This document shows positions 2,206-25,328 of a stretch of 34,145 nucleotides of DNA, in pieces. Numbering within the stretch: the stretch's first letter is position 1; each line of letters begins with the position of its first letter. The stretch is from positions 1 through 34,145 of the forward strand of contig JAGLLT010000025.1 of NCBI GenBank assembly GCA_023140385.1. The letters run 5' to 3'. The notes below the pieces were generated by a model. That model saw only the letters and a program-made list of their open reading frames with translations. It had not been told where the DNA came from and did no database searches. This DNA comes from Candidatus Omnitrophota bacterium (GTDB lineage: Bacteria > Omnitrophota > Gorgyraeia > JAGLLT01). The position numbers were made by a program, and so were the translations under genes.

Positions 2206-3216
2206 GTGAAGCAGTATAATATAGCCGTTGTTGGTGTTGGCGCGGTTGGTAAAGAGATACTTAAAACCTTAAAGACGAGAAACTTTCCGGTCGCGTCTAT
2301 TAAAGTGCTTGCCAGAAGCGCGCGTGAAATTGACGTAGACGGGCAGTCTTATATGGTAGAGGAAATAAGCCCTGAGTCTTTTAAGGGAATTGATATAGCC
2401 TTGTTTGCCGGTACCGAGGGTGAAAAGGGAGCTTCTGTTACTTACGCGCCTTCAGCTGTAAAAGAAGGAGCGGTGGTTATTGATAACGGGGCTGACTTTC
2501 GTTTGAAGGATGATGTTCCTTTAGTTGTGCCTGAAGTAAACGCGGCTGATGTAAAAAACAATAAAGGCATCATCTCCAATCCCAACTGTTCCACCATCCA
2601 GATGGTTTTAGCCCTTCATCCAATTTATAAGTTATCAAGAATAAAGAGAGTCATAGCTAATACTTATCAGGCGGCTTCAGGGGCAGGCCAGAGTGCTTCT
2701 GATGAGCTGTATAATCAAACCGCTGAATTCTTAGACGGTAAAGATTTAACCATTAAGGCCTTTAGTAAAAGAATTGCCTTTAATGTGATTCCCCAGATAG
2801 GAAGTTTTGGCGAACTGGACTATACTACTGAAGAGTGGAAGATGGTATATGAAACCCATAAGATTCTTCACGATGATAATATCAAAATATCAGCCACCAC
2901 TGTCAGAGTGCCGGTTAAAACCGGGCACAGTGAGTCTATATATATAGAGACTGAAAAACCGCTTTTAGTCGATGAAGTGAGGACAGCCTTAAACGCGCAA
3001 AGCGGTATCAAAGTGGTTGATGATATAAACAGCCTCCAATATCCTATGCCTTATGAGTCAGAAGGCACTGATGACGTCTTTGTAGGCCGCATTCGTAAGG
3101 ATCCTTATGTACCTGAAGGCCTATGGCTTTGGGTAACGGCTGATAACTTAAGAAAAGGCGCCGCCCTAAATGCCGTTCAGATTGCGGAAGCATTAATTAA
3201 TGATGGTCAATTTTAA
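2206..3216 (+). CDS. asd: Aspartate-semialdehyde dehydrogenase
   Basis: VPLVVPEVN, NPNCSTIQM (catalytic Cys), VRVPV..GHSE and DNLRKGAALNAVQIAE; GAGG RBS with GTG start. Confidence 0.97.
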   Translation: MKQYNIAVVGVGAVGKEILKTLKTRNFPVASIKVLARSAREIDVDGQSYMVEEISPESFKGIDIALFAGTEGEKGASVTYAPSAVKEGAVVIDNGADFRLKDDVPLVVPEVNAADVKNNKGIISNPNCSTIQMVLALHPIYKLSRIKRVIANTYQAASGAGQSASDELYNQTAEFLDGKDLTIKAFSKRIAFNVIPQIGSFGELDYTTEEWKMVYETHKILHDDNIKISATTVRVPVKTGHSESIYIETEKPLLVDEVRTALNAQSGIKVVDDINSLQYPMPYESEGTDDVFVGRIRKDPYVPEGLWLWVTADNLRKGAALNAVQIAEALINDGQF

Positions 3217-3934
3217 GCTTACTATAGAATATGACGGTACAAATTACAGCGGCTGGCAAATACAACCCCACCAAAGAACCATCCAGCAGGAAATAGAAAA
3301 ACAACTAAGTAAGATACTCAATCATAAAATAAAGATTACAGGCTCCGGCAGAACAGATGCCGGAGTTCATGCTTTAGCCCAAGTTGCAAACTTCAAAACC
3401 ACATCAACAATAAAACCCGCCAACCTAAAAAAAGCCCTAAATTCACTCATAAATAAAGACATCAAGATAAAGAGCATTACGAAGGTGTCAGATGATTTCC
3501 ATGCCAGATTTTCCGCCAAAAGAAAAACCTACAGATACCAGATAGCCCTAAAAGAACCCAGCGTCTTTGAAAGGTTCTATTACAACTACATCCCATACAA
3601 ACTAAACCTATCCCTAATGAAAAAAGAAGCCAAAGATTTATTAGGCACCCACGACTTCAAATCATTCCAAGGCTCAGCCCGCCTAGCCAAAAACACCAAA
3701 AGAACCATAACCAAAGCCTCACTCATAAAAAAAGAAGATAAGCTCTACTTTACAATTGAAGGAAGCGGTTTTCTATATAATATGGTAAGAAACATAGCCG
3801 GCACCCTAATTGAAATAGGAAGGGGCAAATTCCCTCAAGGCAGTATAAAAAAAATAATAAAAACCAAAGACAGAAGAAAAGCAGGACCTACAGCTAAAGC
3901 TTGTGGGTTGTTTTTGGTTAGGGTGGGGTATTGA
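3200..3934 (+). CDS. truA: tRNA pseudouridine(38-40) synthase
   Basis: EYDGT.YSGWQ.Q, GSGRTDAGVHA, FHARFSA, GTHDF.SF, FLYNMVRNIAG and GPTA...GL motifs. Confidence 0.97.
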   Translation: MMVNFKLTIEYDGTNYSGWQIQPHQRTIQQEIEKQLSKILNHKIKITGSGRTDAGVHALAQVANFKTTSTIKPANLKKALNSLINKDIKIKSITKVSDDFHARFSAKRKTYRYQIALKEPSVFERFYYNYIPYKLNLSLMKKEAKDLLGTHDFKSFQGSARLAKNTKRTITKASLIKKEDKLYFTIEGSGFLYNMVRNIAGTLIEIGRGKFPQGSIKKIIKTKDRRKAGPTAKACGLFLVRVGY

Positions 3935-3940
3935 TTTGGG

Positions 3941-4026
3941 TTGAATTGTATGTGCATGGGGTGTAAGATGGGTGTGTATGGTATTGGATTGCTTTAAAGG
4001 GAGAGTTTGAGTGTTAATTGTTAGGT
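3941..4026 (+). promoter_or_regulatory. Promoter plus attI-like entry module, copy A
   Basis: TTGAAT(3941)-17 bp-TAAGAT(3964); ends TTAATT|GTTAGGT (core 4020-4026); alignable to 9961-10045 and 7946-7992. Confidence 0.6.
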
Positions 4027-4058
4027 CATAGAGAAGGTCGTGAGAAAGGAGCAATGAC

Positions 4059-5561
4059 ATGCCTATCAAGATTGCCATAAGTCCAATCTCGGATACTCAA
4101 AAGAATTACTTGCTGATCGCTCAGTCTCGGCCCACCTCATCGCGGGCTATTGAGGCGTTGCTTAACGTTTGTTGTGACGAGGATATAACATCTGGACGGG
4201 AAGCCGTTCACCCAGAATGGGCTAAGATTTTTACAGTGAACATTCGGCAACTCAAAAAACAGCTTAAAGCTTCGCAGTTAGTGCAACTTGAGCAGATTTT
4301 CGGTCAAGCAGCTTTCTATGATCCTGCTGTGCTCAAGATTAATCTCTCTGCGTCACGTCTCGTCTTTCTTTTGGGTGCGGGTGCATCGAAACCACGACCT
4401 TCAGGTATTCCAACAGTTTCAGAACTATTAGTAGACCTGCTTCAGCGCGCACGCAAACTGAACCGCCAAGATCTCGATCGGCTTGCTGATTTCTGCGAAG
4501 AAGCAAACATTACCAACATTGAAGATCTTCTCACGGCAGCACAGTTATCGGAATTCTGTAGCCGGAACCCAACAGTTCTTCGCCTCATTGAGTTTCTCAT
4601 CTATCGCAAAGGGCGTGATGACTCCGAGACCCAGCCTTATCCCACCATGTCACATTCTCGAGGATTCCGTTTGCCAATCGGGGATCTGTCGGCGGTAGCG
4701 TTTCTACAAGACACCCTTCAGGTACTCTTTGGTCTCTTGTCCAGCCGAATGCTCCCGGCAAAGCCCAATGCAGCACATAAGGCAATCGCCAAATATGCGC
4801 ATGCCAACAAATCAACATCAATTGTGACTACCAACTATGACTGCTGTATGGATCTTGCGCTGGGGACCGAAGGAAGGGATTTCTCTTACCTGGTCGATTT
4901 CATGAATAAACAATCCTCTGAAAATCGAGCACAAGCAAAGAGCTCATTGATCAAGCTCCACGGTAGTTTGAATTGGTTTTACTGCGATACATGCCAGCAG
5001 GTCCATCAGATCGATATCAAGAAGACGATTAAGGAGTATCTTACAGACCAAGGATGCTATTCCGTTATTGCTGTATGCAGAGAGTGTGGCGGGCAACGTC
5101 GTGGATTAATTGTTCCACCTTTAGCCATGAAGTTTGATATGGCGCCGCCCCTGACACCGTTGATTGGGAGGACGCAGGAATCGTTCAATGCAGCAGACAT
5201 CATTATAGCTGTAGGTTTCTCCTTCGCCGACGCTGACTTATACATCTCGCGTATGCTTACTAAAGCACTACAATCCTCCAAGGAAACGCAACTGGTCGTG
5301 TTTGACCCGGATTACACTGTTGTGGAAAAACTGAGGCGACAGATGTCTTTACACGTCTCCGGCTTTAACCCAGGCAGGATTCTTAGGGTTGGAGGAGATT
5401 GTTCAGAAATGCTTCCGGCATTTCTGGCGAGACGGCTAAAGTTCATAAAGACTAAGCCGATGGTTGAATTCAAGGACAAAGCGATCAGGGTGCCAACGAA
5501 AGAGAGACAAATCCAGCACCGAACAAAAGCATCCAGGCGACGTCCTAAAGGTCGCAGCTGA
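4059..5561 (+). CDS. SIR2-family (sirtuin-like NAD-binding) protein with Zn-ribbon, possible defence effector
   Basis: VFLLGAGAS..SGIPT, IVTTNYD, LIKLHGSLNW, CxxC...CxxC, IVPP and VGFSFAD motifs; ~100 aa unassigned N-terminus; AAGGAG RBS. Confidence 0.88.
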   Translation: MPIKIAISPISDTQKNYLLIAQSRPTSSRAIEALLNVCCDEDITSGREAVHPEWAKIFTVNIRQLKKQLKASQLVQLEQIFGQAAFYDPAVLKINLSASRLVFLLGAGASKPRPSGIPTVSELLVDLLQRARKLNRQDLDRLADFCEEANITNIEDLLTAAQLSEFCSRNPTVLRLIEFLIYRKGRDDSETQPYPTMSHSRGFRLPIGDLSAVAFLQDTLQVLFGLLSSRMLPAKPNAAHKAIAKYAHANKSTSIVTTNYDCCMDLALGTEGRDFSYLVDFMNKQSSENRAQAKSSLIKLHGSLNWFYCDTCQQVHQIDIKKTIKEYLTDQGCYSVIAVCRECGGQRRGLIVPPLAMKFDMAPPLTPLIGRTQESFNAADIIIAVGFSFADADLYISRMLTKALQSSKETQLVVFDPDYTVVEKLRRQMSLHVSGFNPGRILRVGGDCSEMLPAFLARRLKFIKTKPMVEFKDKAIRVPTKERQIQHRTKASRRRPKGRS

Positions 5562-5576
5562 TACTTACCGTTAGAA
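5518..5576 (+). mobile_element. Integron attC-like recombination site (59-base element)
   Basis: ACCGAAC (R'') ... GCATCCAG (L'' region) ... GCGAC/GTCGC inner stem ... CTGATAC (L' region) ... GTTAGAA (R'); 59 bp; R'' is complementary at 6/7 to the GTTAGGT that starts the cassette at 4020. Confidence 0.8.
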
Positions 5577-5584
5577 GGAGAAAA

Positions 5585-5791
5585 ATATTCGAAATATTTT
5601 TTTACATTTTGTTTTATCCGTTATTGCTTGTTATTTGGAAAATTCCCAAAAGACTATTTTTAAAAAAAAGCTGGATTACGATGTTTGCCTTCGGGGGAGT
5701 TATATTAAATTTTATAAAATCATTCAAATTTAACTTTATATCCATAGCATTTTTAGCCATAAGTTCTATATTGATTTGTCGTCAACAATGA
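5585..5791 (+). pseudogene. Small hydrophobic ORF, probably a decayed cassette gene (in-frame ATA where a start is expected)
   Basis: AGGAG at 5576-5580 is followed by ATA TTC GAA ATA..., in frame with the hydrophobic ORF 5609-5791; it lies between two GTTAGAAGGAGAAAA copies. Confidence 0.4.
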
Positions 5792-5859
5792 CGGCAATAT
5801 CAGAGCAAAGCGGTTAATTTACTGCCTTTTGCGGCTGTTGTTAGAAGGAGAAAATAACT

Positions 5860-6630
5860 ATGACATTAATTTTAACAGAACTTAGCGGAAGAGGAATTAC
5901 AATGGCTGCTGATTCAGCTATTACGCTTAGAAATAGACAAACAGGCCTGTTTTATATTTCTCATGAAAGAGCAAAAAAATTACAAGAAATTCCATATCTT
6001 AATGCTGGAATTTCATGTTGGGGGATGGGCCAAATCGATACTAAATCAACCGATAAGTGGTTATCTGACTTTATTCAGTCCAATTCAGGCATTGAAACCT
6101 TATCTGAATTTGCAGAGAAATTAGTAAGTAAGCTTAATGATCTCATTCCAAATAATGACAATGGAGAACCACGGTTAGGCTTTCACCTATCTGGTTTTGA
6201 AAAAAATAATGACCAAGAACCAATACCATCTTTCTATCATATACATGATGGGCCCAGTGAGGTACTGAGAGACAGAGAAATCGATATCAATTCTAATCAA
6301 TTTAATGCGAATCATGATATGCCACCATTAATATTCAAAAGAGACATTTTATCTCAAAGGAAAGCTTATATAACACGAAATGGAGATTATACATTATATG
6401 CTCAGTTATTTAATGGAATTGAAACCTTCTTAAGAAGCATAGCTAATGATGGAATCATAATTCCGCATTCTATTGATTTAGAAGATCGGGCGGAGTACCT
6501 AGTATTTCAAATACGAACGATGGCTGAACTATACCGACTGAGTAATCTTGTTCCTGGTATTGGTGGGGCTATTGACTATTTAACTATTGATTCTAATGGG
6601 ATCCATAGTTCAGGGACGAGATATCAATAG
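5860..6630 (+). CDS. Proteasome beta-subunit-like N-terminal-nucleophile (Thr) hydrolase
   Basis: After Met removal: Thr1, GITMAAD17S, a KKL strand (Lys33 equivalent), GISCWG (Gly47 equivalent) and C-terminal GIGGAIDYLTI..NG, matching the proteasome/HslV fold pattern. Confidence 0.72.
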   Translation: MTLILTELSGRGITMAADSAITLRNRQTGLFYISHERAKKLQEIPYLNAGISCWGMGQIDTKSTDKWLSDFIQSNSGIETLSEFAEKLVSKLNDLIPNNDNGEPRLGFHLSGFEKNNDQEPIPSFYHIHDGPSEVLRDREIDINSNQFNANHDMPPLIFKRDILSQRKAYITRNGDYTLYAQLFNGIETFLRSIANDGIIIPHSIDLEDRAEYLVFQIRTMAELYRLSNLVPGIGGAIDYLTIDSNGIHSSGTRYQ

Positions 6631-6633
6631 AAC

Positions 6634-6749
6634 TTATAATAATTTGCTTCACGCTGACTATTGCTTGCATTCTTTCAGATGTGGTTTGTGCTAGATAAGC
6701 TTATATGTTAGAGTGATAATAAAAATGAAGCAATATAATACTGTTAAAA
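6634..6749 (+). mobile_element. Degenerate long attC-like site
   Basis: TTATAAT just after the stop (5/7 to the expected TTCTAAC); inverted pair TTGCTTCA (6644-6651) / TGAAGCAA (6726-6733); GTTAAAA at 6743. Confidence 0.4.
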
Positions 6750-6856
6750 TGACAAATGCAAGAGTTCTATATTGTAAACTAAGAAATTTTATTTCGCAAT
6801 AATGTTATTTTAAATAATACTTAATGTTCATTATGCATTAAAAGGGGATAGGTGGA

Positions 6857-7867
6857 TTGGTGCAATTGAAAGCACAACAACAAAGAAAAAAATTTTTAGA
6901 AATTTACAACTTGGAATTTCCTCCATATATTAAGAAGCTAACCATTGGCGATTATAAATTTAAAAGAATAGGGAACTACAAAGAAGCTTCTGATAATATG
7001 ATGTGGCTCTTAACTTCATATGGAAGCGAATTTGATAGACAAACGAAAACAGGTTCACATCAAGTTACTGCAATTGTTGAAGTTCCGCAAACAGAAAAAA
7101 AATGCGAGTTGCCTTGGGGTGATAAAAAGTCAACACAGCTATACGATGTTTTATTTTTATTAACAATTTTTACTGGAAGGAATGTTTTTGAAAAGAATTG
7201 GGATGATGAGAATGATATTGCTATCATCCAAGATTACAGAATGCATCAGTATGGTGGCCAGTTAATTACGTCGTTGAATGGTGAATGGGTTTTTATGAAT
7301 ATAGATACTGGTGAATTTAGATCAGAAGAAGAAATAAAAGGCATGGACAACGTGGAGCAAATGGATTGGAATAAAGTCGATATTGGATTTGAGAAAAATT
7401 TAAATCAAGTTTTAAATAAAATCTCTAGTAAAAGTTGGCAAGACGAGTACGAAGGCGGCTATTTTTTATTATTGTTTAAATCGGCAATGCAAAGACAGAT
7501 TATTGGAACATCTTTTATTTTATGCTGGACAGTTTGGGAGCATATTTTCGCCATTAAAAATCGTAATTGGTTAGATGATAAAACTATTGAACAGATGAGT
7601 AGTGATAAAAAAATCAGTTATATATTAAACAAATATTTTTTAAAGGATATTGATGATGGTGCTAGAAAAAATATACAGAGAATTAATAAAACGAGAAACA
7701 GGTTAGTTCATTTTGGTAAGAAAACAGATAATGTTGATTTTGCAGAAATGAACATGTTTATTCGATTAACTGAGCAATTAATAGCTACTATTTTAGGTTT
7801 GCGGCCGTCAAATCTTTTTAATTCATTTGATGAGTTAGATAATTTTTTAAAAAAAAGTAAACATTAG
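6857..7867 (+). CDS. HEPN-domain protein (ApeA-like architecture), putative RNase
   Basis: C-terminal helical region with FILCWTVWEH and the RNRLVH (Rx4H) motif; AT-rich; start codon uncertain. Confidence 0.7.
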   Translation: MVQLKAQQQRKKFLEIYNLEFPPYIKKLTIGDYKFKRIGNYKEASDNMMWLLTSYGSEFDRQTKTGSHQVTAIVEVPQTEKKCELPWGDKKSTQLYDVLFLLTIFTGRNVFEKNWDDENDIAIIQDYRMHQYGGQLITSLNGEWVFMNIDTGEFRSEEEIKGMDNVEQMDWNKVDIGFEKNLNQVLNKISSKSWQDEYEGGYFLLLFKSAMQRQIIGTSFILCWTVWEHIFAIKNRNWLDDKTIEQMSSDKKISYILNKYFLKDIDDGARKNIQRINKTRNRLVHFGKKTDNVDFAEMNMFIRLTEQLIATILGLRPSNLFNSFDELDNFLKKSKH

Positions 7868-7894
7868 GAGGGTAAATGTTTAGTAAGCAATACG

Positions 7895-7915
7895 AAAAGG
7901 GGACAGATACCTTTT
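7895..7915. repeat. GGGGACA-type boundary motif
   Basis: AAAAGGGGACAGATACCTTTT; related copies at 8387-8409, 9051-9068, 9904-9925, 10811-10822 (reverse) and 16311-16353 (inverted pair). Confidence 0.6.
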
Positions 7916-7945
7916 AATAATATCTTAGGTGTAATAAAGTATATA

Positions 7946-7992
7946 ATATTAAAATTCCTTAAAAAATGAAGTTCGCATATTAACTGTTAGAT
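7946..7992 (+). promoter_or_regulatory. attI-like entry module, copy B
   Basis: 7946-7988 matches 9999-10041 at 36/43 ungapped; it ends TTAACT|GTTAGAT (perfect GTTRRRY); TATAAT at 7942. Confidence 0.65.
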
Positions 7993-8021
7993 GAAAGAGT
8001 ATAAATAAAAGGAGGTAAATC

Positions 8022-8363
8022 ATGGAGAACACATCGGGTCAAGGAGAATCGGCAATTGTTCCTGCTGAAATTAAAGGATGGAATTGGGGAGCTTTCTTGT
8101 TAAGCTGGATATGGGCTATAGGGAACAACACATGGATTGGCTTGTTAGCATTAATTCCCTATGCAGGATTTGTAATGGCAATAATACTTGGAATTAAAGG
8201 AAAAGAGTGGGCTTGGAAGAATAAGAAATGGGAAAGTGTGGATCATTTCCAGAGAGTGCAAAAAAAATGGGCATATTGGGGAGTCGCTATCTGTTTATTC
8301 TTTTTTGTAGTAGGTCTTCTCGCATCAATAATTGTACCTATATTAGTAAACATGAGACAATAA
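8022..8363 (+). CDS. Trp-rich small membrane protein (WNWGAF family, DUF2628-like)
   Basis: GWNWGAFLLSWIWAIGN, GKEWAWK and QKKW motifs; hydrophobic helices; AAGGAGGT RBS. Confidence 0.8.
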   Translation: MENTSGQGESAIVPAEIKGWNWGAFLLSWIWAIGNNTWIGLLALIPYAGFVMAIILGIKGKEWAWKNKKWESVDHFQRVQKKWAYWGVAICLFFFVVGLLASIIVPILVNMRQ

Positions 8364-8488
8364 AACCATTTAACACCTATATAAAACAGGGGACACTGGA
8401 CTTACCCTGACAAGACGGACAATTAATTAACCTTATTTCTTTACTCATACTTTACAGGGCTAACATATAACCCAGACTTAATCCCCCC

Positions 8489-8547
8489 CCATGCAAACTT
8501 CCTATAATTGAACTTGAAAGAAGTGCGGTTGCGATGTATTATATATA
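8489..8547 (+). promoter_or_regulatory. 59-bp repeated sigma70-type promoter block, copy 1
   Basis: 55/59 identical to 10856-10914; TTGAAA(8514)-17 bp-TATTAT(8537); followed by TAATT|GTTAGGA at 8554. Confidence 0.8.
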
Positions 8548-8566
8548 GTAATTGTTAGGAGAAAAA

Positions 8567-9040
8567 ATGAATAAAAGAATTATACTTGCTTTAATTCTAA
8601 GTAGCTCAATAATTGGGTGCGCGACACGCTTAGTTCAACAGCAATCTAGCAATACATCAATAAATGAAGAGTTTTCTCCGACTGATCCTTTTAAATGGGA
8701 AAACTTAACGCCAATAGAATTCCTAAACTATTTAAAAGAACGCCAAGGAACGCTACTTACAATTTGGGAACCGGCCCCAAGAGACTGGATAAAAAAAGAA
8801 CATATTCCAAAGCTAATGGAGCTCATAGAATCAAACACACCTTGCGCCCATACGGTCGCCGCAATATCATCTTGTCTGCCGCCACCAAAATCCACCATTG
8901 GAGATGAAGCAATATTTCTTATAGATGGTTTTATTGAAGGTAGATATCCGCCGGGTCTTTATTCAAAAGGAAAATCAAAACAAAAAATTGAAAGCATAAA
9001 AGAATGGTATGAAGAATGGAAAAGAAATAAAAAACTATAA
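8567..9040 (+). CDS. Putative lipoprotein, function unknown
   Basis: AGGAG RBS, then MNKRIILALILSSSIIG-C lipobox-like signal; start moved from the ORF-track TTG to ATG 8567. Confidence 0.7.
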   Translation: MNKRIILALILSSSIIGCATRLVQQQSSNTSINEEFSPTDPFKWENLTPIEFLNYLKERQGTLLTIWEPAPRDWIKKEHIPKLMELIESNTPCAHTVAAISSCLPPPKSTIGDEAIFLIDGFIEGRYPPGLYSKGKSKQKIESIKEWYEEWKRNKKL

Positions 9041-9102
9041 CAATTTCAAGAAAAAGGGGGCACCTTTTCCATTTAAATCCCCTTAAAGAGGTGAGAAGTA
9101 AA

Positions 9103-9357
9103 ATGAAATTAAATTTTTCAAGAAATGACTTTAAAGATGCATTTATAGGGATGGTAATACTTAGTATTATACTCAGTGTACTCTATTGTGCTATACTTCT
9201 ATTGCCTAATCAGTTCGGAGTGCATGACGAATGGAAAGTCACTCTATTGGCAACCACAAAGGAGCATTGGCCTATTTTTCTTGGTGGTATAATGGTTATA
9301 AGTCTTTTCTATAGTATATTGGAGTTAGTAAAAAAAATAAAAAAAAGACATAAATGA
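9103..9357 (+). CDS. Small two-helix membrane protein, function unknown
   Basis: Two hydrophobic segments and a basic C-terminus; GAGGTG upstream; start could be 9091 or 9103. Confidence 0.6.
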   Translation: MKLNFSRNDFKDAFIGMVILSIILSVLYCAILLLPNQFGVHDEWKVTLLATTKEHWPIFLGGIMVISLFYSILELVKKIKKRHK

Positions 9358-9463
9358 AAACAAAGTTAAAAGTTGACCATAAGCCGTTTAAAAAACTTGC
9401 AAAGAATTCCCCCTTTGCCCCTTTGTTTCTGTAAAGCTAATTTAGGATTATATTAAAACAGTG

Positions 9464-9889
9464 ATGAAAGAGGAAATTTATTCAAAAGATTTAGGGATCA
9501 ATCTTAAAACGGGCGGGGAGGAAGAAATCTTTAAATGGTTTTTAGCTTGTTTACTCTTCGGAAAACCCATTCAGCAGAAGGTTGCTAAAAGGGCCTACTT
9601 TGAATTTGAAAAAGAAGGAATTTTGAGCCCGGAGAAAATCTTAAAAGCCGGCTATGATAAATTAGTTGAGATATTAGACAAAGGTCATTATGTGCGTTAT
9701 GATTTCTCTACTGCCAACAAATTATTAGATATTTGTAAAAAATTGAAAAAAGATTATGGAAGTCTATCCAATCTTCTTAAAAAGGCTAAAGACAAAAAAG
9801 AGGTAGAAAAAACACTCCAAGAATTTAAGGGGATAGGGCCGGTGACCATCAAAATATTTTTAAGAGACCTTTGCAATAAAACTAACTAG
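9464..9889 (+). CDS. Helix-hairpin-helix (HhH-GPD/endonuclease III-like superfamily) protein
   Basis: FKWFLACLLFGKPI, GHYVRYD and the terminal HhH motif LQEFKGIGPVTIKIFL; the protein ends right after the HhH. Confidence 0.7.
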   Translation: MKEEIYSKDLGINLKTGGEEEIFKWFLACLLFGKPIQQKVAKRAYFEFEKEGILSPEKILKAGYDKLVEILDKGHYVRYDFSTANKLLDICKKLKKDYGSLSNLLKKAKDKKEVEKTLQEFKGIGPVTIKIFLRDLCNKTN

Positions 9890-9960
9890 AAAAAGGGAAA
9901 AAGAAAAAAGGGATAGGCGCCTTTTGCCGCCTGGATATTACATATAATTAAGCATCCAGC

Positions 9961-10045
9961 TTGAAAGTTTAATATATTTTATGTATAATATGTGTGTGAT
10001 ATTAAAGTACCTTAAAAAAAGAAGTTGGGGTATTAATTGTTGTAT
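9961..10045 (+). promoter_or_regulatory. Promoter plus attI-like entry module, copy C
   Basis: TTGAAA(9961)-17 bp-TATAAT(9984), then the 43-bp block shared with 7946-7988, ending TTAATT|GTTGTAT. Confidence 0.7.
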
Positions 10046-10072
10046 TATAAAAATCTTTAAAGAGAAAGATAA

Positions 10073-10786
10073 ATGAACTCACCTAATTTAAGACGCGAAG
10101 TTAGATATGGAATGCCGGCAGCAGACCAAGTAATGTTTAATAGATATTATGTGCTAGGTTATTCATATTATTTTCGTCAGGCAAAGTGGGCCTTAGAAAT
10201 TGTAGATCCTGATAATCTTGGCTTAGATCGTTCAGATAACTTTCGTCCAGATTATCGAATTCCAGATATGTTTCGCGCCGACCTTGTTGATTATGCTGGA
10301 TCCGGCTACGATCGCGGGCATCTTGTTGCAAGTGCTAATCAGAGAGAAACAGAATTACAAAATAGTGAAACATTCCTTTTGTCCAATATGTCTCCTCAGA
10401 GACCTCGATTCAATAGAAACACTTGGAGAGAATTGGAAGCTGAAGTCAGAAATTTAGACGCAAAGTCTAGAATATTAGAAACGTATGTTATCTGTGGCCC
10501 TATTTTTTATTTCGATCAGCCAGTCGAAGGTATAGGTGCTGACGACCCGAATGAAGTAACCATACCAATACCACACGCATATTTTAAATCTATTTTGACT
10601 GAGAATAATAAAGGGGCTTTGCATATGTGGTCATTTGTATTACCAAACGAAGAATCTGATCAATCACTTGACACGTTTTTAGTTCCAACAACACTTGTTG
10701 AAAAATTAGCCGGCATCAAGTTGTGGGAACAGCTGGTAGGTAAGAAAATTGATAAAGAAAAATCAAGGGTTCGTAGAATGTGGTAA
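10073..10786 (+). CDS. DNA/RNA non-specific endonuclease (NucA/EndoG beta-beta-alpha-metal family)
   Basis: SGYDRGHL, ETFLLSNMSPQ...FNR..W..LE, VICGPIF and IP..YFK motifs; no signal peptide. Confidence 0.93.
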   Translation: MNSPNLRREVRYGMPAADQVMFNRYYVLGYSYYFRQAKWALEIVDPDNLGLDRSDNFRPDYRIPDMFRADLVDYAGSGYDRGHLVASANQRETELQNSETFLLSNMSPQRPRFNRNTWRELEAEVRNLDAKSRILETYVICGPIFYFDQPVEGIGADDPNEVTIPIPHAYFKSILTENNKGALHMWSFVLPNEESDQSLDTFLVPTTLVEKLAGIKLWEQLVGKKIDKEKSRVRRMW

Positions 10787-10855
10787 AATTTCCAAGGATA
10801 TAACATTTATATGTCCCCTAAATCGGGGGAAGTCCACTCTGTCTCTCCATGCTAA

Positions 10856-10914
10856 CCATGCAAACTTCATATAATTGAGCTTGAAAGAAGCGCGTTTGCG
10901 ATGTATTATATATA
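10856..10914 (+). promoter_or_regulatory. 59-bp repeated promoter block, copy 2
   Basis: 55/59 identical to 8489-8547; TTGAAA(10881)-17 bp-TATTAT(10904). Confidence 0.8.
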
Positions 10915-10954
10915 TGCGCTATTAAATACTGGACAAAAATAAAAGGAGAATCAC

Positions 10955-11386
10955 TTGAAATATTTGATTATTTTATTGATAATTATCGCGATCGCGTTTA
11001 TAGCATTTACATACAGCCAAAGAAATCTAAACGCGCCGGATAACGCGATAGTAATAATAAAACCATATTGGCATAATGAAACATGGGTCTTTGATGATAA
11101 AAGAGTGAATTTATATCAAGAACCATTTGTAGCGGGAATACCTGAAATGATTAATCATATGACAAAAGATATTCCCAACGCTAAAAATGGATTTAGATTA
11201 TTGTTTTCAGCTAATTCATTTCCAGCTTATCAAATGAAATTAATCTGGATACGAGAAGAGAGTGGTGGAAATTGGTATTATTTAGAGGATTTACAAACGG
11301 AAGGCTGGTTATGTCCAGCTTTATTTAAGTATTACAAAAAGACTCCAAAAGAAATATACGCTAAAGCAGAGGCAATAAATGAATGA
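10955..11386 (+). CDS. Conserved hypothetical protein (resembles DUF6717) with N-terminal membrane anchor
   Basis: PY....WVFDD....L..EPFVAG, F.LLFSA..FP, GGNWY and GWLCPAL.KY motifs (family name from recall); AAGGAG RBS with TTG start. Confidence 0.7.
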   Translation: MKYLIILLIIIAIAFIAFTYSQRNLNAPDNAIVIIKPYWHNETWVFDDKRVNLYQEPFVAGIPEMINHMTKDIPNAKNGFRLLFSANSFPAYQMKLIWIREESGGNWYYLEDLQTEGWLCPALFKYYKKTPKEIYAKAEAINE

Positions 11387-11475
11387 TTATCCACCTAATT
11401 AGTTAATGCACCCGACCCTGAAGTGTCGGGGCGGGGGAATTTAAGTGTTCAAAGGAGAGAAAAGGGAGGTTGAAT

Positions 11476-11868
11476 ATGCGCTTGGAAGTATTTTCGTTAT
11501 GCGACGCGGCAACGGCCGACACAGGAAAGCTAAATATTTTAGGGGCTTTTGATATAATCTGGAGTTCAAAAATGCCGGCGATCCATCCACAATGCACTAT
11601 CGCTCTTAGAATTAGATTTGACGCGATTGAAAGGGGTGAACATAAAATTTCTGTTAATTTTGTAGATATAGACGGTAAGCACGTCCTTCCACCGGCTAAC
11701 GGCATAATTAAAGTCAATTTTCCCGATGAACAAAGCTCCGGTTCATCTCATCTAATCCTCAACATTCAAAGATTAAAGCTGGAAAAATATGGAGAATACT
11801 CTATAGACTTAGCTATAGATGGAAGAAGTGAAGCATCGCTGCCACTTTTTGTCAAAAAAAGACAATAA
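11476..11868 (+). CDS. Conserved hypothetical beta-sandwich protein (resembles DUF6941)
   Basis: LCDAA....GKLNILGAFD and C-terminal G.YSI.L.IDG pattern (family name from recall); GGAGGT RBS before ATG 11476. Confidence 0.7.
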   Translation: MRLEVFSLCDAATADTGKLNILGAFDIIWSSKMPAIHPQCTIALRIRFDAIERGEHKISVNFVDIDGKHVLPPANGIIKVNFPDEQSSGSSHLILNIQRLKLEKYGEYSIDLAIDGRSEASLPLFVKKRQ

Positions 11869-11907
11869 TGTAGGGCAGGTCCACTGAGCTATCCCGGAGG
11901 ACATAAT

Positions 11908-12270
11908 ATGAAGAAAACGTGGGTTCCTAAAATTATAGCCATTCTAATAACAACTGTTATAGTTACAACTACTATACATTTAAGTCATTTGACAGGAGGA
12001 AGTCTTGTTCGAAAGAAATTATTGAACGATGAAAAACTTGTGAAAGTTTTAGATTATATTAAGGAATCTGGAGTTAAAATACAAGATATTTCCTTAGCCG
12101 GCAAAGAGCCGCCAACGTATCCAAGTTTTTTTGTTTTTATATTTTTGCTTGTTTCCCTTTTTTTGGGCATTCATTTTGTTAGCATGAAGATTGTAAAAAA
12201 ACTTTTTAATATCTGCCGACAATCGCGCGAATGCCTATTGAAATTGAAATCGGAGGAACGCAATACTTGA
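11908..12270 (+). CDS. Hypothetical membrane protein
   Basis: GGAGG RBS; N-terminal and C-terminal hydrophobic helices. Confidence 0.55.
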   Translation: MKKTWVPKIIAILITTVIVTTTIHLSHLTGGSLVRKKLLNDEKLVKVLDYIKESGVKIQDISLAGKEPPTYPSFFVFIFLLVSLFLGIHFVSMKIVKKLFNICRQSRECLLKLKSEERNT

Positions 12271-12388
12271 ATTTAGTAATGGATAGTGTAAAAGATGTTC
12301 CTCTATTATGCTTAGAGATGTTTTTGTATCTTTTTAGCGGATGATAGTGTATGATGATTAAAGTAAATTATTAAAAAAGAGAGATATT

Positions 12389-13981
12389 ATGGAAAAGAAA
12401 AAGAGATTTAATGAACTTGGGCTTTCAGCAAAGGTGTTGGAGGCAATTAATAAAAAGGGTTTTGAAGAGCCAACCGCGATTCAGGCTCTGACTATCCCTG
12501 TTATGTTAAGAGATGATACTAATATCATTGCTCAGGCTCAAACAGGTACAGGCAAAACAGCCGCGTTTGGGTTACCTCTGATAGAAATGATTAACGCGGA
12601 TTCCAAAACAGTTCAGGCGCTAATCCTGGCTCCTACACGAGAGTTAGCCATTCAGGTATCGGAAGAAATCAATTCACTCAAAGGGAAGAAGGATATCAAA
12701 ATAGTTCCTATATATGGCGGCCAGTCTATTGATCAGCAGCTGCGCAGACTGAAAAAAGGTGTGCATATTGTTGTTGGAACTCCGGGCAGGATAATTGATC
12801 ATCTTAACAGAAGAACGCTAAAGCTTGGAGAAATTGAGCATTTGATACTTGATGAGGCGGATGAAATGCTTAATATGGGATTCATCGAAGATATGGAAAA
12901 AATAATGAAGTATACAAATCCCAAGAAAAGAACACTCTTGTTTTCCGCGACAATGCCCAAAAGGATAAAGGACCTTGCCCACAAATACATGGAAGGTTAT
13001 GAGTTTCTCGCGGTTAAGGCAGAGCAGTTGACAACTAATCTCACCGAGCAAATATACTTCGAGGTAAAAGTTTCTGACAGGTTTGAGGCGCTATGCAGGA
13101 TAATAGATATTGAAGATGAGTTTTACGGATTAGTTTTCTGCAGAACAAAGAGTAATGTTGATTCTGTTTCAGGCCATTTAATAGATAGAGGATATGACGC
13201 GGGAGCTATTCATGGAGATATTTCACAGGCGCAAAGAGAAAGAACTCTGGATAAATTCAGGAAACAAAGAGTTCGTATTCTTATAGCAACGGATGTTGCC
13301 GCTCGCGGAATTGATGTTATTAATCTCACCCACGTTATCAACTATTCACTGCCTCAAGACCCGGAGTCGTATGTTCATCGAATAGGCCGTACAGGAAGGG
13401 CCGGGAGTGAGGGTACGGCTATTACGTTTATTACCCCTAGTGAGTATAATAAGCTGATGCATATACAGCGGTTTGCCAAGACTGATATTAAGAAATCAAA
13501 AGTACCGCAGGTAAAAGATATCATCGAATCCAAAAAGAAAAAGATACATGATGATCTGACAGCTGTTCTTAATGATAAGATTGATCCTAATTATTATAAC
13601 TGGGCTAAGAAATTACTTGAGAATAATAACCCCCCGGAAATATTAGCCGCGATATTAAACCATTGCTTCGAAGAAGAGCTTAATCCTAATACTTATGGTG
13701 TGATAAAAGATGTCAGTGGAAAAGGAAAGCAGCTTGATCAACAGGGCAAAGCAAGGCTTTTTGTAGCGCTTGGCAAGAAAGACAAGATGAATGCCAAAAA
13801 ACTTGTTGAGCTTATTATGAGCAAGGTTTCAGTTAAGTCCAAACATATCAGTGATGTACAGGTAATGGAAAAATTCTCTTTTATAACAGTTCCTTTTGAA
13901 AAAGCGGAAAAAATCGTTGTCAGCTTTAGGGAGAAGGGTAAAAAACCGCTGATCAGTCATGCTAAGAAAACCAAAAAGTAA
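12389..13981 (+). CDS. DEAD-box RNA helicase with C-terminal DbpA-type RNA-binding domain (DeaD/CsdA-like)
   Basis: Q motif GFEEPTAIQ, AQTGTGKT, PTRELA, TPGR, DEAD, SAT, ARGID and HRIGRTGRAG; C-terminal RLFVALGKKD...FSFITV. Confidence 0.96.
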   Translation: MEKKKRFNELGLSAKVLEAINKKGFEEPTAIQALTIPVMLRDDTNIIAQAQTGTGKTAAFGLPLIEMINADSKTVQALILAPTRELAIQVSEEINSLKGKKDIKIVPIYGGQSIDQQLRRLKKGVHIVVGTPGRIIDHLNRRTLKLGEIEHLILDEADEMLNMGFIEDMEKIMKYTNPKKRTLLFSATMPKRIKDLAHKYMEGYEFLAVKAEQLTTNLTEQIYFEVKVSDRFEALCRIIDIEDEFYGLVFCRTKSNVDSVSGHLIDRGYDAGAIHGDISQAQRERTLDKFRKQRVRILIATDVAARGIDVINLTHVINYSLPQDPESYVHRIGRTGRAGSEGTAITFITPSEYNKLMHIQRFAKTDIKKSKVPQVKDIIESKKKKIHDDLTAVLNDKIDPNYYNWAKKLLENNNPPEILAAILNHCFEEELNPNTYGVIKDVSGKGKQLDQQGKARLFVALGKKDKMNAKKLVELIMSKVSVKSKHISDVQVMEKFSFITVPFEKAEKIVVSFREKGKKPLISHAKKTKK

Positions 13982-22256: not shown

Positions 22257-23183
22257 ATGAAGCATAAAGATTTAATTTCCATAGAAGAGCTTACAGTAAA
22301 AGAGGTTAATCAGATTTTGGATTTAAGCGCCAGGCTCAAGGCAAATAAAGCCGGGGGTGTTAATCTTAAAGGTAAGACGCTGGGGCTGGTATTTCAGAAA
22401 CCTTCCAACAGGACGAGGGTTTCCTTTTGGGTGGGAATGAGTAAGCTAAAAGGACACTGCATCTATCTTTCTCCTCAGGAACTGCAGCTTGGAGAAAGAG
22501 AGTGCGTTAAGGACGCGGGCAGGGTTTTATCAAGGTATCTTGATGTTATCGCGGCAAGGACGTTTTCGCATAAAATGCTGCTGGAGCTTGCCAAATATTC
22601 TTCGGTGCCGGTAATAAACGCCCTGACAGACCTTTTGCATCCCTGCCAGGCGTTGAGTGATATATTAACGATTAAGGAGATAAAAAAGAGCTTTAAGGGT
22701 ATCAAACTTGCCTATGTCGGAGACGGCAATAATGTTCTGCACTCCCTGTTATACGCGGCGGCGAAGGTGGGGCTGGATATTTCTTATGCCGTGCCTAAGG
22801 GATATGAGCCTAATGAGGAGATTTTAAGGAAAGCAAAGGTTATAGCAAAAAAAACAAGGTCTAAAATTGAAAAGTCCAATGATGCTAAAAAGGCGGCAGA
22901 AGGAGCTGATTTTATCTATACAGACGTCTGGACCAGCATGCATCAGGAGAAAGCGGCCGCTAAAAGAAAGGAGGCCTTTAAGAGTTTTCAGATAAACACA
23001 AAGCTTTTGTCCTTTGCCAAAAGAGGCTGTCTGGTGATGCACTGTCTGCCGGCAAAAAGAGGATTAGAGATAACGGATGAGATTATGGACGGGCCTCAGT
23101 CGATTGTCTATGACCAGGCTGAAAACAGGCTCTATGTGGAGCAGGCAATATTGTATTTATTATTAAAGGATAATAAAAGATGA
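22257..23183 (+). CDS. argF: Ornithine carbamoyltransferase
   Basis: FQKPSNRTRVSF, HPCQAL.D, YVGDGNN, TDVW.SM, HCLP and QAENR; located in the arg operon. Confidence 0.93.
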   Translation: MKHKDLISIEELTVKEVNQILDLSARLKANKAGGVNLKGKTLGLVFQKPSNRTRVSFWVGMSKLKGHCIYLSPQELQLGERECVKDAGRVLSRYLDVIAARTFSHKMLLELAKYSSVPVINALTDLLHPCQALSDILTIKEIKKSFKGIKLAYVGDGNNVLHSLLYAAAKVGLDISYAVPKGYEPNEEILRKAKVIAKKTRSKIEKSNDAKKAAEGADFIYTDVWTSMHQEKAAAKRKEAFKSFQINTKLLSFAKRGCLVMHCLPAKRGLEITDEIMDGPQSIVYDQAENRLYVEQAILYLLLKDNKR

Positions 23184-24094
23184 AGATCGCGAAAATATTT
23201 ATTTTAGCTCTTGCATTTTTTTCCTTCGCGCAGGCGGCGCGGGGAGATATCGTTTATCTGAAGAACGGAGCTCAATATCAGGGTGAGGTTCTTAGAGAGA
23301 CTCCTGATCAGGTGATGATAAGGCTTAAAATAGGTGTCCTGACAATTGACAGAAAGGATGTGGAGTCTGTCAAAAGAGAGATAAAAAAGGTAGAGCCCGA
23401 AGAGGAGATAAAGACATTAACTAAAGATGAGAGTATCCTCGAAGAACTAAAGAAGGCGTCAGAAGATATCATTAGTTATAAATGCGATATGAGGGTTGAG
23501 CTTTATGATAAGTCTATCATAAAAGGCAATTTGCTTTTTATGAGGCCGGATAATATGAAGGCTAACTACAGTGTCTGGACTGATAAAGAGGGAATGGGAA
23601 GGCTTATTGTAACCGCTCTCTCGGACGGTAAGGTTTTCTGGATGTATTATCCGCAGTTAAACGTTGCCTACAGGCAGGACGCCTTTAAGTCTAACGCTTT
23701 TGTGCCCGGAGGCGATGAGTTACTGCCCTCCGCCCTGATAGAGAAACTGATTGAAAACGGCTGCCGGGTTTTGGAAGAGGACATAATCGGCGGGGATAAG
23801 GTGTACTGTATTGAAGGCGCCGGAGGTGAATTTGGCGGCGGATTCGGTGATGTAGGCCAAAAGATGGCGGTGGCTAAGTGCAGGTTGTGGCTTAGGATCG
23901 CGGATGGTTTTTTAGTGAAGAGTGTCGGCTATTCAGAGCAAGGCGATTTGCTCTTTATAACCAAAAATATGGATATAGAAACTAATATTGAGGTTGAAAA
24001 GGCTGAGTTTAGCTTTCAGCTTCCTGAAAATGTGCAGGTAATTGATTCCGCGTTTTTAAAAGATATGGAAAAGTTATTTGACGAAGAGAATTAA
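23180..24094 (+). CDS. Exported protein with small N-terminal beta-barrel domain and LolA-like domain
   Basis: Signal peptide (AQA-A); D.VYLKNG...GEV; F.RPD.MK, SDGK.FWMY.P, LW....DG and F.FQLPENVQVID LolA-like patterns; ATGA overlap with argF. Confidence 0.7.
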   Translation: MKIAKIFILALAFFSFAQAARGDIVYLKNGAQYQGEVLRETPDQVMIRLKIGVLTIDRKDVESVKREIKKVEPEEEIKTLTKDESILEELKKASEDIISYKCDMRVELYDKSIIKGNLLFMRPDNMKANYSVWTDKEGMGRLIVTALSDGKVFWMYYPQLNVAYRQDAFKSNAFVPGGDELLPSALIEKLIENGCRVLEEDIIGGDKVYCIEGAGGEFGGGFGDVGQKMAVAKCRLWLRIADGFLVKSVGYSEQGDLLFITKNMDIETNIEVEKAEFSFQLPENVQVIDSAFLKDMEKLFDEEN

Positions 24095-24106
24095 AGGAAA
24101 GAAATT

Positions 24107-25294
24107 ATGAAAAAAGTTGTTCTTGCTTATTCAGGCGGATTGGATACTTCTATAGCGGTAGGGTGGCTTAAGGATAGAGGGTTTGAGATTATTGCTTATT
24201 TGGGTGACGTTGGGCAGAAAATTGATAGAGCTAAAATAATCCCCAAGGCCAAGAGGTCCGGTGTCAGCAAGATTGTTATTGAAGACCTTAGAAAGGAGTT
24301 TGTCGACTCTTATATTAAGCCGGCTATTAAGGCAAATGCCGTCTATGAAGATAAATACTTTTTAGCAACAGCTCTTTCAAGGCCGCTTATAGCTAAGAGG
24401 CAGGTTGAGACAGCCAAGAAGGAAGAGGCCGGTTATCTGGCTCACGGATGTACCGGTAAAGGTAATGACCAGGTAAGATTTGAGATGACCTTTGCCTCAT
24501 TAGCGCCCGAGCTAAAAATTGTGGCGCCGGCAAGGGAGTGGGACTTTGCTTCGAGAGAAGAGCAGGTTGATTTTGCTGTGGAGCACAAAATACCGGTTGA
24601 CGTTAGTAAAAAAAGTCCTTATTCAATAGATGAAAACCTTTGGGGTGTAAGTATTGAGTGCGGTGTTCTTGAGGACCCTGAAAAGGTCTTGCCGGAAGAT
24701 GCCTACCTCCTGACTAAAAGCCCCGAACAGGCGCCTTCAAAGCCGAAACTTGTAAGCATTGCCTTTGAAAAGGGCGTTCCGGTCGGACTTGATGGGAAAA
24801 AGATGAACTTAATCGCGCTGATTAACAGTTTAAATACCATTGGCGGAGCTTGCGGAGTAGGCAGAAGTGATTTAATTGAAAACAGGACCGTAGGCATTAA
24901 GTCAAGAGAGGTATATGAAGCGCCTGCCGCCGCTATTTTAACCTTTGCCCATAAAGAACTTGAGGCAATGACGCTTGACAAGGAAACCGCCCACTTTAAA
25001 AAGACGATTGAGCAAAAGTACGGCCAGCTTATTTATAACGGCTGTTGGTTTACTCCTTTAAAGGCCTCTCTGGATGCTTTTATTAATGAAACGCAAAAGA
25101 CGGTCTCAGGAGAGATAAAGTTAAAATTATATAAAGGCAACATTATTATCTGCGGGAGAAAGTCCAGACTTTCCTTGTATTCAAAAGAGCTTGCCACCTA
25201 TTCACAAGAGGACATTTTTGACAGAACGGCGGCCAGCGGGTTTATTAAACTCTTAAGCCTGCCTTATAGATTAACGGGAAAAAGAAGAAAATAA
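24107..25294 (+). CDS. argG: Argininosuccinate synthase
   Basis: LAYSGGLDTS, TALSRP, HGCTGKGNDQVRFE, YSIDENLWG and ENR.VG.KSRE.YE.P. Confidence 0.98.
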   Translation: MKKVVLAYSGGLDTSIAVGWLKDRGFEIIAYLGDVGQKIDRAKIIPKAKRSGVSKIVIEDLRKEFVDSYIKPAIKANAVYEDKYFLATALSRPLIAKRQVETAKKEEAGYLAHGCTGKGNDQVRFEMTFASLAPELKIVAPAREWDFASREEQVDFAVEHKIPVDVSKKSPYSIDENLWGVSIECGVLEDPEKVLPEDAYLLTKSPEQAPSKPKLVSIAFEKGVPVGLDGKKMNLIALINSLNTIGGACGVGRSDLIENRTVGIKSREVYEAPAAAILTFAHKELEAMTLDKETAHFKKTIEQKYGQLIYNGCWFTPLKASLDAFINETQKTVSGEIKLKLYKGNIIICGRKSRLSLYSKELATYSQEDIFDRTAASGFIKLLSLPYRLTGKRRK

Positions 25295-25328
25295 TTCAGG
25301 ATTAAGTTTTTAATTTTTGGAGAGAAAG

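Follow-up and report, generated by a model that had tools for sequence, protein, structure and literature searches.

An integron, as set out by Cury et al. (2016; PMC4889954), has one promoter (Pc) and one attI site, both beside the integrase gene intI. Can this platform be multiplied, and can it persist where there is no intI? The question is raised by a 34,145-nt contig (JAGLLT010000025.1, assembly GCA_023140385.1) of a Candidatus Omnitrophota bacterium of the class Gorgyraeia, in which an attI-like block of about 43 bp ending in GTT occurs three times downstream of truA. Hereafter the whole contig is called the window, and the genome to which it belongs G000. A first-pass annotation of the sequence had read the copies as the entry modules of integrase-less mini-integrons. 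The comparisons reported here make it probable that the block is the attI site, with its Pc, of an integron lineage of this class, and that the stretch from truA to an endonuclease gene is an intI-less chromosomal integron-type array with the platform in three copies of the same orientation and two degenerate, promoter-only relatives.

The block is repeated between truA and an endonuclease gene

The copies lie at 3973–4025 (weak), 7937–7991 and 9989–10044, with their GTT at 4020–4022, 7986–7988 and 10039–10041; the positions proposed for them, each ending in GTT, are all borne out in the sequence. The same is true of the similarity of the last two, which by hand count match at 36 of 43 positions (7946–7988 against 9999–10041) and which also form a repeat family (D3) at 80% over 50 nt (7939–7988 and 9992–10041). 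A sequence-only model (R1), built from four genomic copies of the block, gave the two strong window copies 50.6 bits (7937–7991) and 51.1 bits (E ~1e-14), and only 13.5 bits to the copy next to truA (3982–4024; E 0.009). An nhmmer search across G000 returned four strong copies: the pair in the window and another pair on contig C4, one in front of a YHS-ArsP permease and one in front of a protein without a family match; the copy at 3981 was not picked up. The best-conserved part of the block is its 3′ core, which ends in TATTAATTGTTAG.

Judged by consensus match, putative Pc promoters are found at 9961–9989, in front of module 3 (TTGAAA-17-TATAAT, near-consensus at 11 of 12 positions), and at 8514–8542 and 10881–10909 (10 of 12 each); judged by homology and position, the window has three candidate attI sites (Table 1). 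Two of the copies had been credited with a −35 and a −10 element 17 bp apart. This stands for module 3, but the promoter-like sequence of module 1 (TTGAAT-17-TAAGAT, 3942–3970) was seen by eye only and falls under the threshold of the promoter scan. In module 2 (the 7946 copy) there is a −10 hexamer 5′ of the block and no clear −35.

A fourth unit had been described, in which a different promoter is followed by TAATT|GTTAGGA. The promoter and this stretch are real. However, only 10 nt of the site are present (8549–8558; GTT, 8554–8556), which match the 3′ end of the block exactly, and the broader block model R3 described below gives no attI-like match in this unit (8489–8558). Its promoter lies in a 59-nt repeat, D1, of which the two copies (8489–8547 and 10856–10914) are 93% identical; the 10 nt follow copy 1, and copy 2 has no attI core. 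On contig C54 of G000 a D1-related promoter leads into a full attI-like site, followed by a Y1-transposase-like gene and an attC site.

The block is homologous to attI sites beside integrase genes

According to Cury et al. (PMC4889954), the sequence of attI is mostly unknown and the site was hence not searched for outside classes 1–3. We built a broader model of the block from 21 sites (R3) and applied it to 151 genomes of the same class. These genomes hold 13 intI genes over the TIGR02249 cut-off, and nine of the 13 have an R3 match within 800 bp on the opposite strand. Another sits at the start of a contig, so that the expected site would lie off the contig. In genome G025 the distance between the match and the start of intI, which is on the other strand, is ~135 bp; the match ends with G|TT, and at least three cassettes with classic attC sites follow directly. 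The layout is the same in G049 and G026: intI, a match on the opposite strand ending in G|TT, the first cassette and a classic attC. Within G000 itself, the start of a classic attC array (contig C6) is likewise homologous to the block. The copies have 35–55 nt in common with the intI-linked attI sites and are not the degenerate short sites unrelated to attI that are known as attG.

Given these intI-linked positions, the identification of the block as the attI site of this integron lineage, with its promoter in the position of Pc, is well supported by sequence comparison. The attI-like character claimed for the block is thereby upheld; comparison with the attI of an intI found elsewhere had been suggested as a check.

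The intI reading frames of this clade encode 431–475 aa, of which ~110 aa precede the TIGR02249 match. For the G025 integrase (C97 7350–8663, L034), Pfam reports two stretches of SAM-like N-terminal domain. The extension might serve as an additional DNA-binding module, whose target could be a palindrome that occurs in attI and beside the intI start. No attI-like match lies beside a partial intI-like gene (270 aa) in G005:C60.

Orphan attI-like sites are spread across the class

R3 returned 82 matches in 37 of the 151 genomes. Of these, 73 do not adjoin intI, and 55 of the 73 are in genomes without an intI over the cut-off. For attC we used a covariance model (R2) built from 11 sites, in which 12 of 18 pairs show compensatory changes. 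Among the orphan matches, at least 28 of 73 have an attC downstream on the same strand within 3 kb and at least 23 within 1.5 kb; by our own arithmetic ~0.1% would be expected by chance. The attC counts rest on 150 of 211 attC matches listed, and 28 of 73 is therefore a lower bound. Many genomes of the class have more than one R3 match, and the number per genome reaches 12 in G003, nine in G000 and five each in G029, G093 and G143. A search with the block thus found further copies both in G000 and across the class, and the proposal that the platform itself is multiplied holds with three copies in the window, nine in its genome and 12 in G003, which has no intI.

A second or internal attI-like site was found in several cases. 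G025 has another copy of the whole intI-proximal spacer plus attI beside mnmG, without intI and followed by attC cassettes. In G003:C3 a single run consists of an attC, a 70-aa open reading frame (ORF), an attI, a gene and an attC. In the array of G083:C119, an attI and four attC are followed by another attI-like site and a further two attC. This internal site (22,326–22,376; L044 4826–4876) is a perfect 15-nt inverted repeat, or hairpin, of the attI core, and it ends a cassette in place of a normal attC. Such an attI/attC hybrid suggests a way in which sites of either kind might turn into the other.

In G025, contigs C97 (~6150–6470) and C107 (~8265–8560) have the same GC-rich, gene-less, palindrome-rich stretch after the cassette junction; two empty cassettes are one possible explanation, strain variants combined in one assembly another.

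The genome has attI-like and attC sites and no detected integrase gene

The assembly of G000 has no intI over the cut-off, its best TIGR02249 match scoring 89.2 bits against a cut-off of 265, and no intI fragment adjoins any copy in the window, so the label integrase-less is apt for this assembly. Three Xer-like genes lie on other contigs of G000. An intI is present in G001, of the same genus, and in G025, G049, G026 and others.

Nine attI-like sites were found in G000 with R3: three head attC sites (C6, C38 and C54), one is the copy next to truA and five have no attC behind them. Besides the four C6 sites used for training (50–68 bits), R2 found attC sites on C38 (four), C14 (two), C48 and C54, scoring 26–42 bits. 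The C6 array (~22,500–25,360; L040 7555–10361, minus strand) comprises an attI-like site and at least four attC, without intI. It lies ~250 bp from pilZ, and in G001 an intI stands in front of the syntenic pilZ-bamD-lptE-holA block; it follows that either G000 lost the C6 intI or G001 gained one. The array holds two pairs of genes that by eye resemble toxin-antitoxin modules. On contig C4 (9115–9142 and 10559–10612; L007, minus strand) two attI-like sites of the same orientation are 1.45 kb apart with no attC, and each precedes a protein without a family match.

The locus in a sister genus

The window locus can be compared with that of G003, which belongs to another genus of the same family (~20 contigs, 1.4 Mb, no intI, 12 attI-like copies). 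There, leuB-asd-truA (79–88% amino acid identity to G000) is followed by an attI-like site, attC cassettes of 41, 32 and 16 bits, several more attI-like sites and the endonuclease gene (87%), directly after which comes the DEAD-box helicase gene (87%). The positional orthologue of module 1 is the attI that heads the attC array after truA in G003 (L041 9595–9650, 37.9 bits). Between truA and the endonuclease gene the two loci have no cargo gene in common. Synteny and attI copies persist here while no cargo is shared, and this marks the locus as an old hot spot with complete turnover of its content.

The unit of promoter, attI and endonuclease gene is orthologous in G000, G002 and G003, with homology from ~20 nt before the −35 into the gene. 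Similarity between copies had been said to break down at or just after GTT; paralogous copies do end at or just after GTTAG, but the similarity of the endonuclease module in these three genomes continues past GTT.

Metagenome contigs were taken from four runs of one study. An independent contig of 10,206 nt spans 3000–10730 unbroken. No joint between attI copies was seen in the contigs of the four runs, which is uninformative either way because contigs drop rare variants. A joint of 3863 to 9328 with one extra T occurs in all four runs; it falls between A-rich stretches (repeat D6) rather than at G|TT, and probably reflects faulty mapping or an unrelated contig. At low depth, further joints connect 3238 to 12375, 7858 to 6887, 7839 to 7750 and 7339 to 9327.

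At 10192–10667 of the window, three of the four runs have an endonuclease variant that differs by ~6%, at a depth 5–20 times that of the rest of the stretch; a high-depth contig of run X4 is identical to the window over 9019–10191 and diverges only inside the endonuclease gene. A contig of run X2 (depth 3.3) passes from 11869 straight to 12314, leaving out the 120-aa gene; the ends of the skipped piece read GT..TT and are not a G|TT boundary.

Cargo and attC evidence in the window

All genes of the window locus lie on the plus strand: leuB, asd and truA (ending at 3934), ~8.4 kb of unrelated, mostly small genes, and the DEAD-box helicase gene (12389–13981). Further genes follow 3′ of the helicase gene, then rplM, rpsI and arg genes. 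Table 1 lists the features of the intervening stretch.

Table 1. Features between truA and the DEAD-box helicase gene in the window. Bit scores are from the block model (R3) or the attC model (R2).
Feature	Position	Strand	Details
Module 1: promoter-like sequence and diverged attI-like site	3941–4025	+	~90 nt past truA stop; R3 25.4 bits, E 2e-5 (genome)
SIR2-like gene, first cargo	4059–5561	+	500 aa; Pfam SIR2_2 9.5e-10; PADLOC SIR2 models to 4e-14
Short attC-like site	5518–5576	+	overlaps SIR2 stop codon; ends at GTT 5570–5572; R2 14.9 bits
Gene-less spacer	5573–5842	+	identical 15-nt start sequence GTTAGAAGGAGAAAA at 5570 and 5840
Two cargo genes	5860–7867	+	256 aa (5860–6630) and 336 aa (6857–7867)
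Very weak attC-like match	6634–6713		R2 11.6 bits, E 0.32; just past stop codon; chance level
Module 2: attI-like site	7937–7991	+	R3 45.0 bits, E 1.4e-11
113-aa predicted membrane protein	8022–8363	+	directly 3′ of module 2
Second promoter type (D1) and last 10 nt of attI core	8489–8558	+	TTGAAA-17-TATTAT at 8514–8542, 10/12
157-aa gene	8567–9040	+	downstream of second promoter type
Two small cargo genes	9103–9889	+	84 aa and 142 aa; no family match
Module 3: promoter and attI-like site (9989–10044)	9961–10044	+	R3 44.0 bits, E 2.8e-11
DNA/RNA non-specific endonuclease	10073–10786	+	237 aa; Pfam Endonuclease_NS 1.9e-43; conserved far end of variable stretch
D1 copy 2 and three-gene block	10856–12270	+	promoter 10856–10914, then DUF6717, DUF6941, 120-aa gene
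Very weak attC-like match	11393–11453		R2 10.9 bits; just past stop codon; chance level

The SIR2-like gene has a GC content of 47% against ~40% in its flanks. The 256-aa protein has no family match, and the 336-aa protein has a weak HEPN_Apea match (7.5e-5, below the cut-off). No Pfam family above the cut-off was found for the 113-aa protein, nor any homologue among the 150 other genomes of the class. The three-gene block of DUF6717, DUF6941 and the 120-aa gene is missing from the G003 locus, and in a tblastx comparison of 3900–12500 with all fetched loci only the endonuclease was shared. Taken together, the cargo looks like phage-defence genes (SIR2-like, HEPN-like, nuclease).

The attC-like site at the end of the SIR2-like gene is probably a decayed cassette end; both of its arms fit the consensus. 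Behind it, the 15-nt repeat around a 270-nt gene-less piece (5570–5860) reads as GTT plus a ribosome-binding site, and no ORF with a good start was found in the spacer. Low-depth foreign metagenome contigs end inside it, at 5606 and 5653. The piece could represent a cassette that is empty or has decayed, or else a small repeat common to other organisms. A GC-rich hairpin of the type GGGGACAGA..CCCC recurs after cargo genes, at 7897–7916 and 8389–8410 in the window and at ~7475 and ~6070 of L041 in G003; it may be a common terminator or a small repeat.

Each module had been expected to hold one or a few cassettes. For module 1 this is weakly supported by the attC-like site, but no attC was found behind modules 2 and 3, whose genes are consequently not callable as cassettes. 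A heuristic attC scan, since superseded by R2, gave two matches in the window compared with one to six in each of ten shuffles. A CALIN (cluster of attC sites lacking integron-integrase) has two or more attC with no intI nearby; the window offers one weak candidate with E <0.1.

Weighing the readings

A number of observations weigh against reading the window as an integron-type array. The attC-like site at 5518–5576 is weak alone (E 0.039 for the 8.6-kb stretch and 0.16 for the whole window), the other attC-like matches in the window are at chance level, and R2 detected no attC for any gene behind modules 2 and 3, including the 113-aa and endonuclease genes. These two modules and three sites on C4 make up the five G000 sites without attC downstream. 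Nor were two of the cargo genes found in cassettes elsewhere: the 113-aa protein has no homologue in the other 150 genomes, and DUF6941, present in 55 of the 151 genomes, is never on a contig with an attC, among the attC matches listed. The endonuclease unit has been inherited whole in three genomes, with similarity past GTT and no attC behind it, a pattern that suits an ordinary conserved 5′ region equally well. In the wider class, 45 of the 73 orphan matches have no nearby attC among the matches listed, the three intI genes of G144, G092 and G091 have no adjacent R3 match, and at least one weak R3 match (G108:C112) had to be rejected as a false positive inside a DUF6941 gene. Finally, G000 is 92.7% complete, and for that reason an intI may lie in its unassembled part. 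From the sequence comparisons, the mini-integron reading appears supported in relatives and only partly so in the window.

An intact attC is missing from most of the window cargo, either through loss or from the outset. Free shuffling of the array has therefore probably ceased, and its modules would serve mainly as promoters. In an alternative reading, the window copies are now only a conserved promoter with a 5′ leader or operator read by a regulator, either exapted from attI or having an accessory site in common with it; the genes behind would form a stress or defence regulon, and the edge of similarity would be the edge of a cis-element. In keeping with this, the promoter–block–endonuclease unit is kept in G000, G002 and G003 without any attC, and copies precede ordinary-looking genes such as that of the YHS-ArsP permease. 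The block also holds a short palindrome, of the type ACGAAGTTCGT, both halves of which change together (ACGGATTCCGT in the C6 copy, ACGAATTCGT in G026), and a second copy of the palindrome stands beside the intI start in G025 and G026, as for an operator common to two divergent promoters. However, it is the 3′ core ending in GTT and not the palindrome that is best conserved, at least 28 of the 73 orphans have attC cassettes downstream, nine copies are at the canonical attI position, and the copies stand before unrelated, for the most part lineage-specific genes, not what would be expected of a regulon. We consider a purely regulatory role unlikely; it would in any case be compatible with an origin as attI.

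Loss of intI is an origin mentioned for CALINs by Cury et al. (2016; PMC4889954), and the copies might likewise be what is left of several integrons of the conventional kind, independent of one another, which each lost their intI and were later rearranged side by side, the platform itself not being mobile. The C6 platform lacks an intI that G001 has at the same place, and intI is found in 13 of the 151 genomes as against 40 with attC sites. It is hard to square with this that three copies share one orientation within 6 kb of the window, that C4 has two within 1.5 kb and G003 12 with no intI, that internal copies occur inside continuous attC arrays and that no intI fragment lies beside the window copies; we think serial intI loss a rather improbable account of the locus. 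That the similarity is a chance or low-complexity resemblance of AT-rich promoter regions can be dismissed almost entirely. The region is AT-rich and has 34 promoter-like sites compared with 29.8 (sd 6.1) in shuffled sequence, but an E-value of ~1e-14 for the strong copies, the retention of 35–45 nt in other families of the class and the positional link to intI already refute it.

Other identities of the block were tried and rejected. For an RNA element or riboswitch, fold z-scores were 1.14, −0.79, 0.12 and 0.62, with no Rfam match up to E 1 except a chance lncRNA match (E 0.9). An invertible promoter would be flanked by an inverted copy of the block, and none flanks any promoter; an attC would have an R″-type partner arm, and none lies upstream. 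A leader peptide was likewise discarded, as an in-frame ATG...TAA was seen by eye in only three of roughly a dozen copies. A presumed resemblance to FRT arms and dif sites was dropped.

How the platform may have multiplied

If the block is the attI and Pc of this lineage, each copy would act, or would once have acted, as a double-stranded entry site that joins incoming DNA at G|TT, with IntI supplied from elsewhere, either from another replicon or from a gene since lost. The promoter of each copy would drive whatever gene stands behind it. The copies themselves may have spread within composite cassettes or, by attI × attI integration, as the 3′ ends of inserted segments. Circles with a single 3′ attI would, on integrating, account for tandems of the same orientation without an attC at the left edge, and excision between two attC flanking a platform would fit the run in G003:C3. 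Repeated loss of intI from separate integrons would fit C6, though not the tandem copies.

A stronger form of this idea can be offered as speculation that we ourselves doubt: attI-type sites with a promoter might be the 3′ recombination site of a second mobile unit, whose circle integrates by duplex attI × attI exchange with IntI acting in trans, giving multi-headed arrays in which each segment brings the promoter of the next gene. Were this true, integrons would have two cassette grammars, one of folded attC and one of duplex attI, and intI-less arrays would be active landing pads.

Comparison with known systems

Multiplied attI-Pc platforms without intI depart from the textbook picture of a single attI. 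In the literature full text we found nothing on natural multiplied, orphan or internal attI-Pc platforms, with most subscription papers outside the scope of the search, and a search on Omnitrophota together with integron gave nothing on the topic. In integron models and standard software a single attI and a single Pc next to intI are taken for granted, and intI-less attC clusters are treated as silent stockpiles. If attI-Pc platforms can increase in number and be retained in the absence of intI, many genes of ‘CALIN’ cargo may be transcribed from their own promoters, a single integrase could act on many landing pads in a genome and an array could offer several promoter-proximal positions. Multiplied platforms thus bear on the open question of how cassette arrays are built and maintained, and R3 gives an entire class of uncultured bacteria a model of their attI. 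The defence-like cargo of the window accords with the recent proposal, made in bioRxiv 10.1101/2024.07.02.601686, that chromosomal integrons bank defence systems.

Among the closest known arrangements is the platform of class 1 integrons and of sedentary chromosomal integrons such as that of Vibrio cholerae. As there, a promoter is followed by a duplex site ending in GTT where unrelated genes begin, and in relatives the homologous sites lie between intI and the first attC cassette; the differences are that here there are three copies in one array and nine in the intI-less G000, and that most copies in the class lie away from intI. Toxin-antitoxin cassettes in chromosomal integrons carry their own promoters. 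The array promoters described here would similarly free distal genes from Pc, and the C6 array has toxin-antitoxin-like pairs (by eye), but in those cassettes the promoter belongs to the cassette gene and there is no attI, whereas here it comes with the insertion site.

With CALINs the locus has in common integron-type cargo without a neighbouring intI, as in the G000 clusters on C6, C38 and C14. In the description by Cury et al. (PMC4889954), CALINs are defined by attC alone and their cassettes are cut off from Pc, whereas the intI-less arrays reported here keep promoter and attI (C6, C38 and C54 in G000; the truA locus of G003), and the window falls short of two clear attC sites. The attG sites, which Loot et al. 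(bioRxiv 10.1101/2022.09.11.507474) present as very numerous, degenerate (for IntI1 with the consensus GWT) and unlike attI in sequence and structure, are similar in being double-stranded chromosomal sites outside the integron at which cassettes insert, with expression if a resident promoter is near. In contrast to that account of attG, the sites found here are homologous copies, 35–55 nt long, of the lineage's own attI, and they bring their own promoter.

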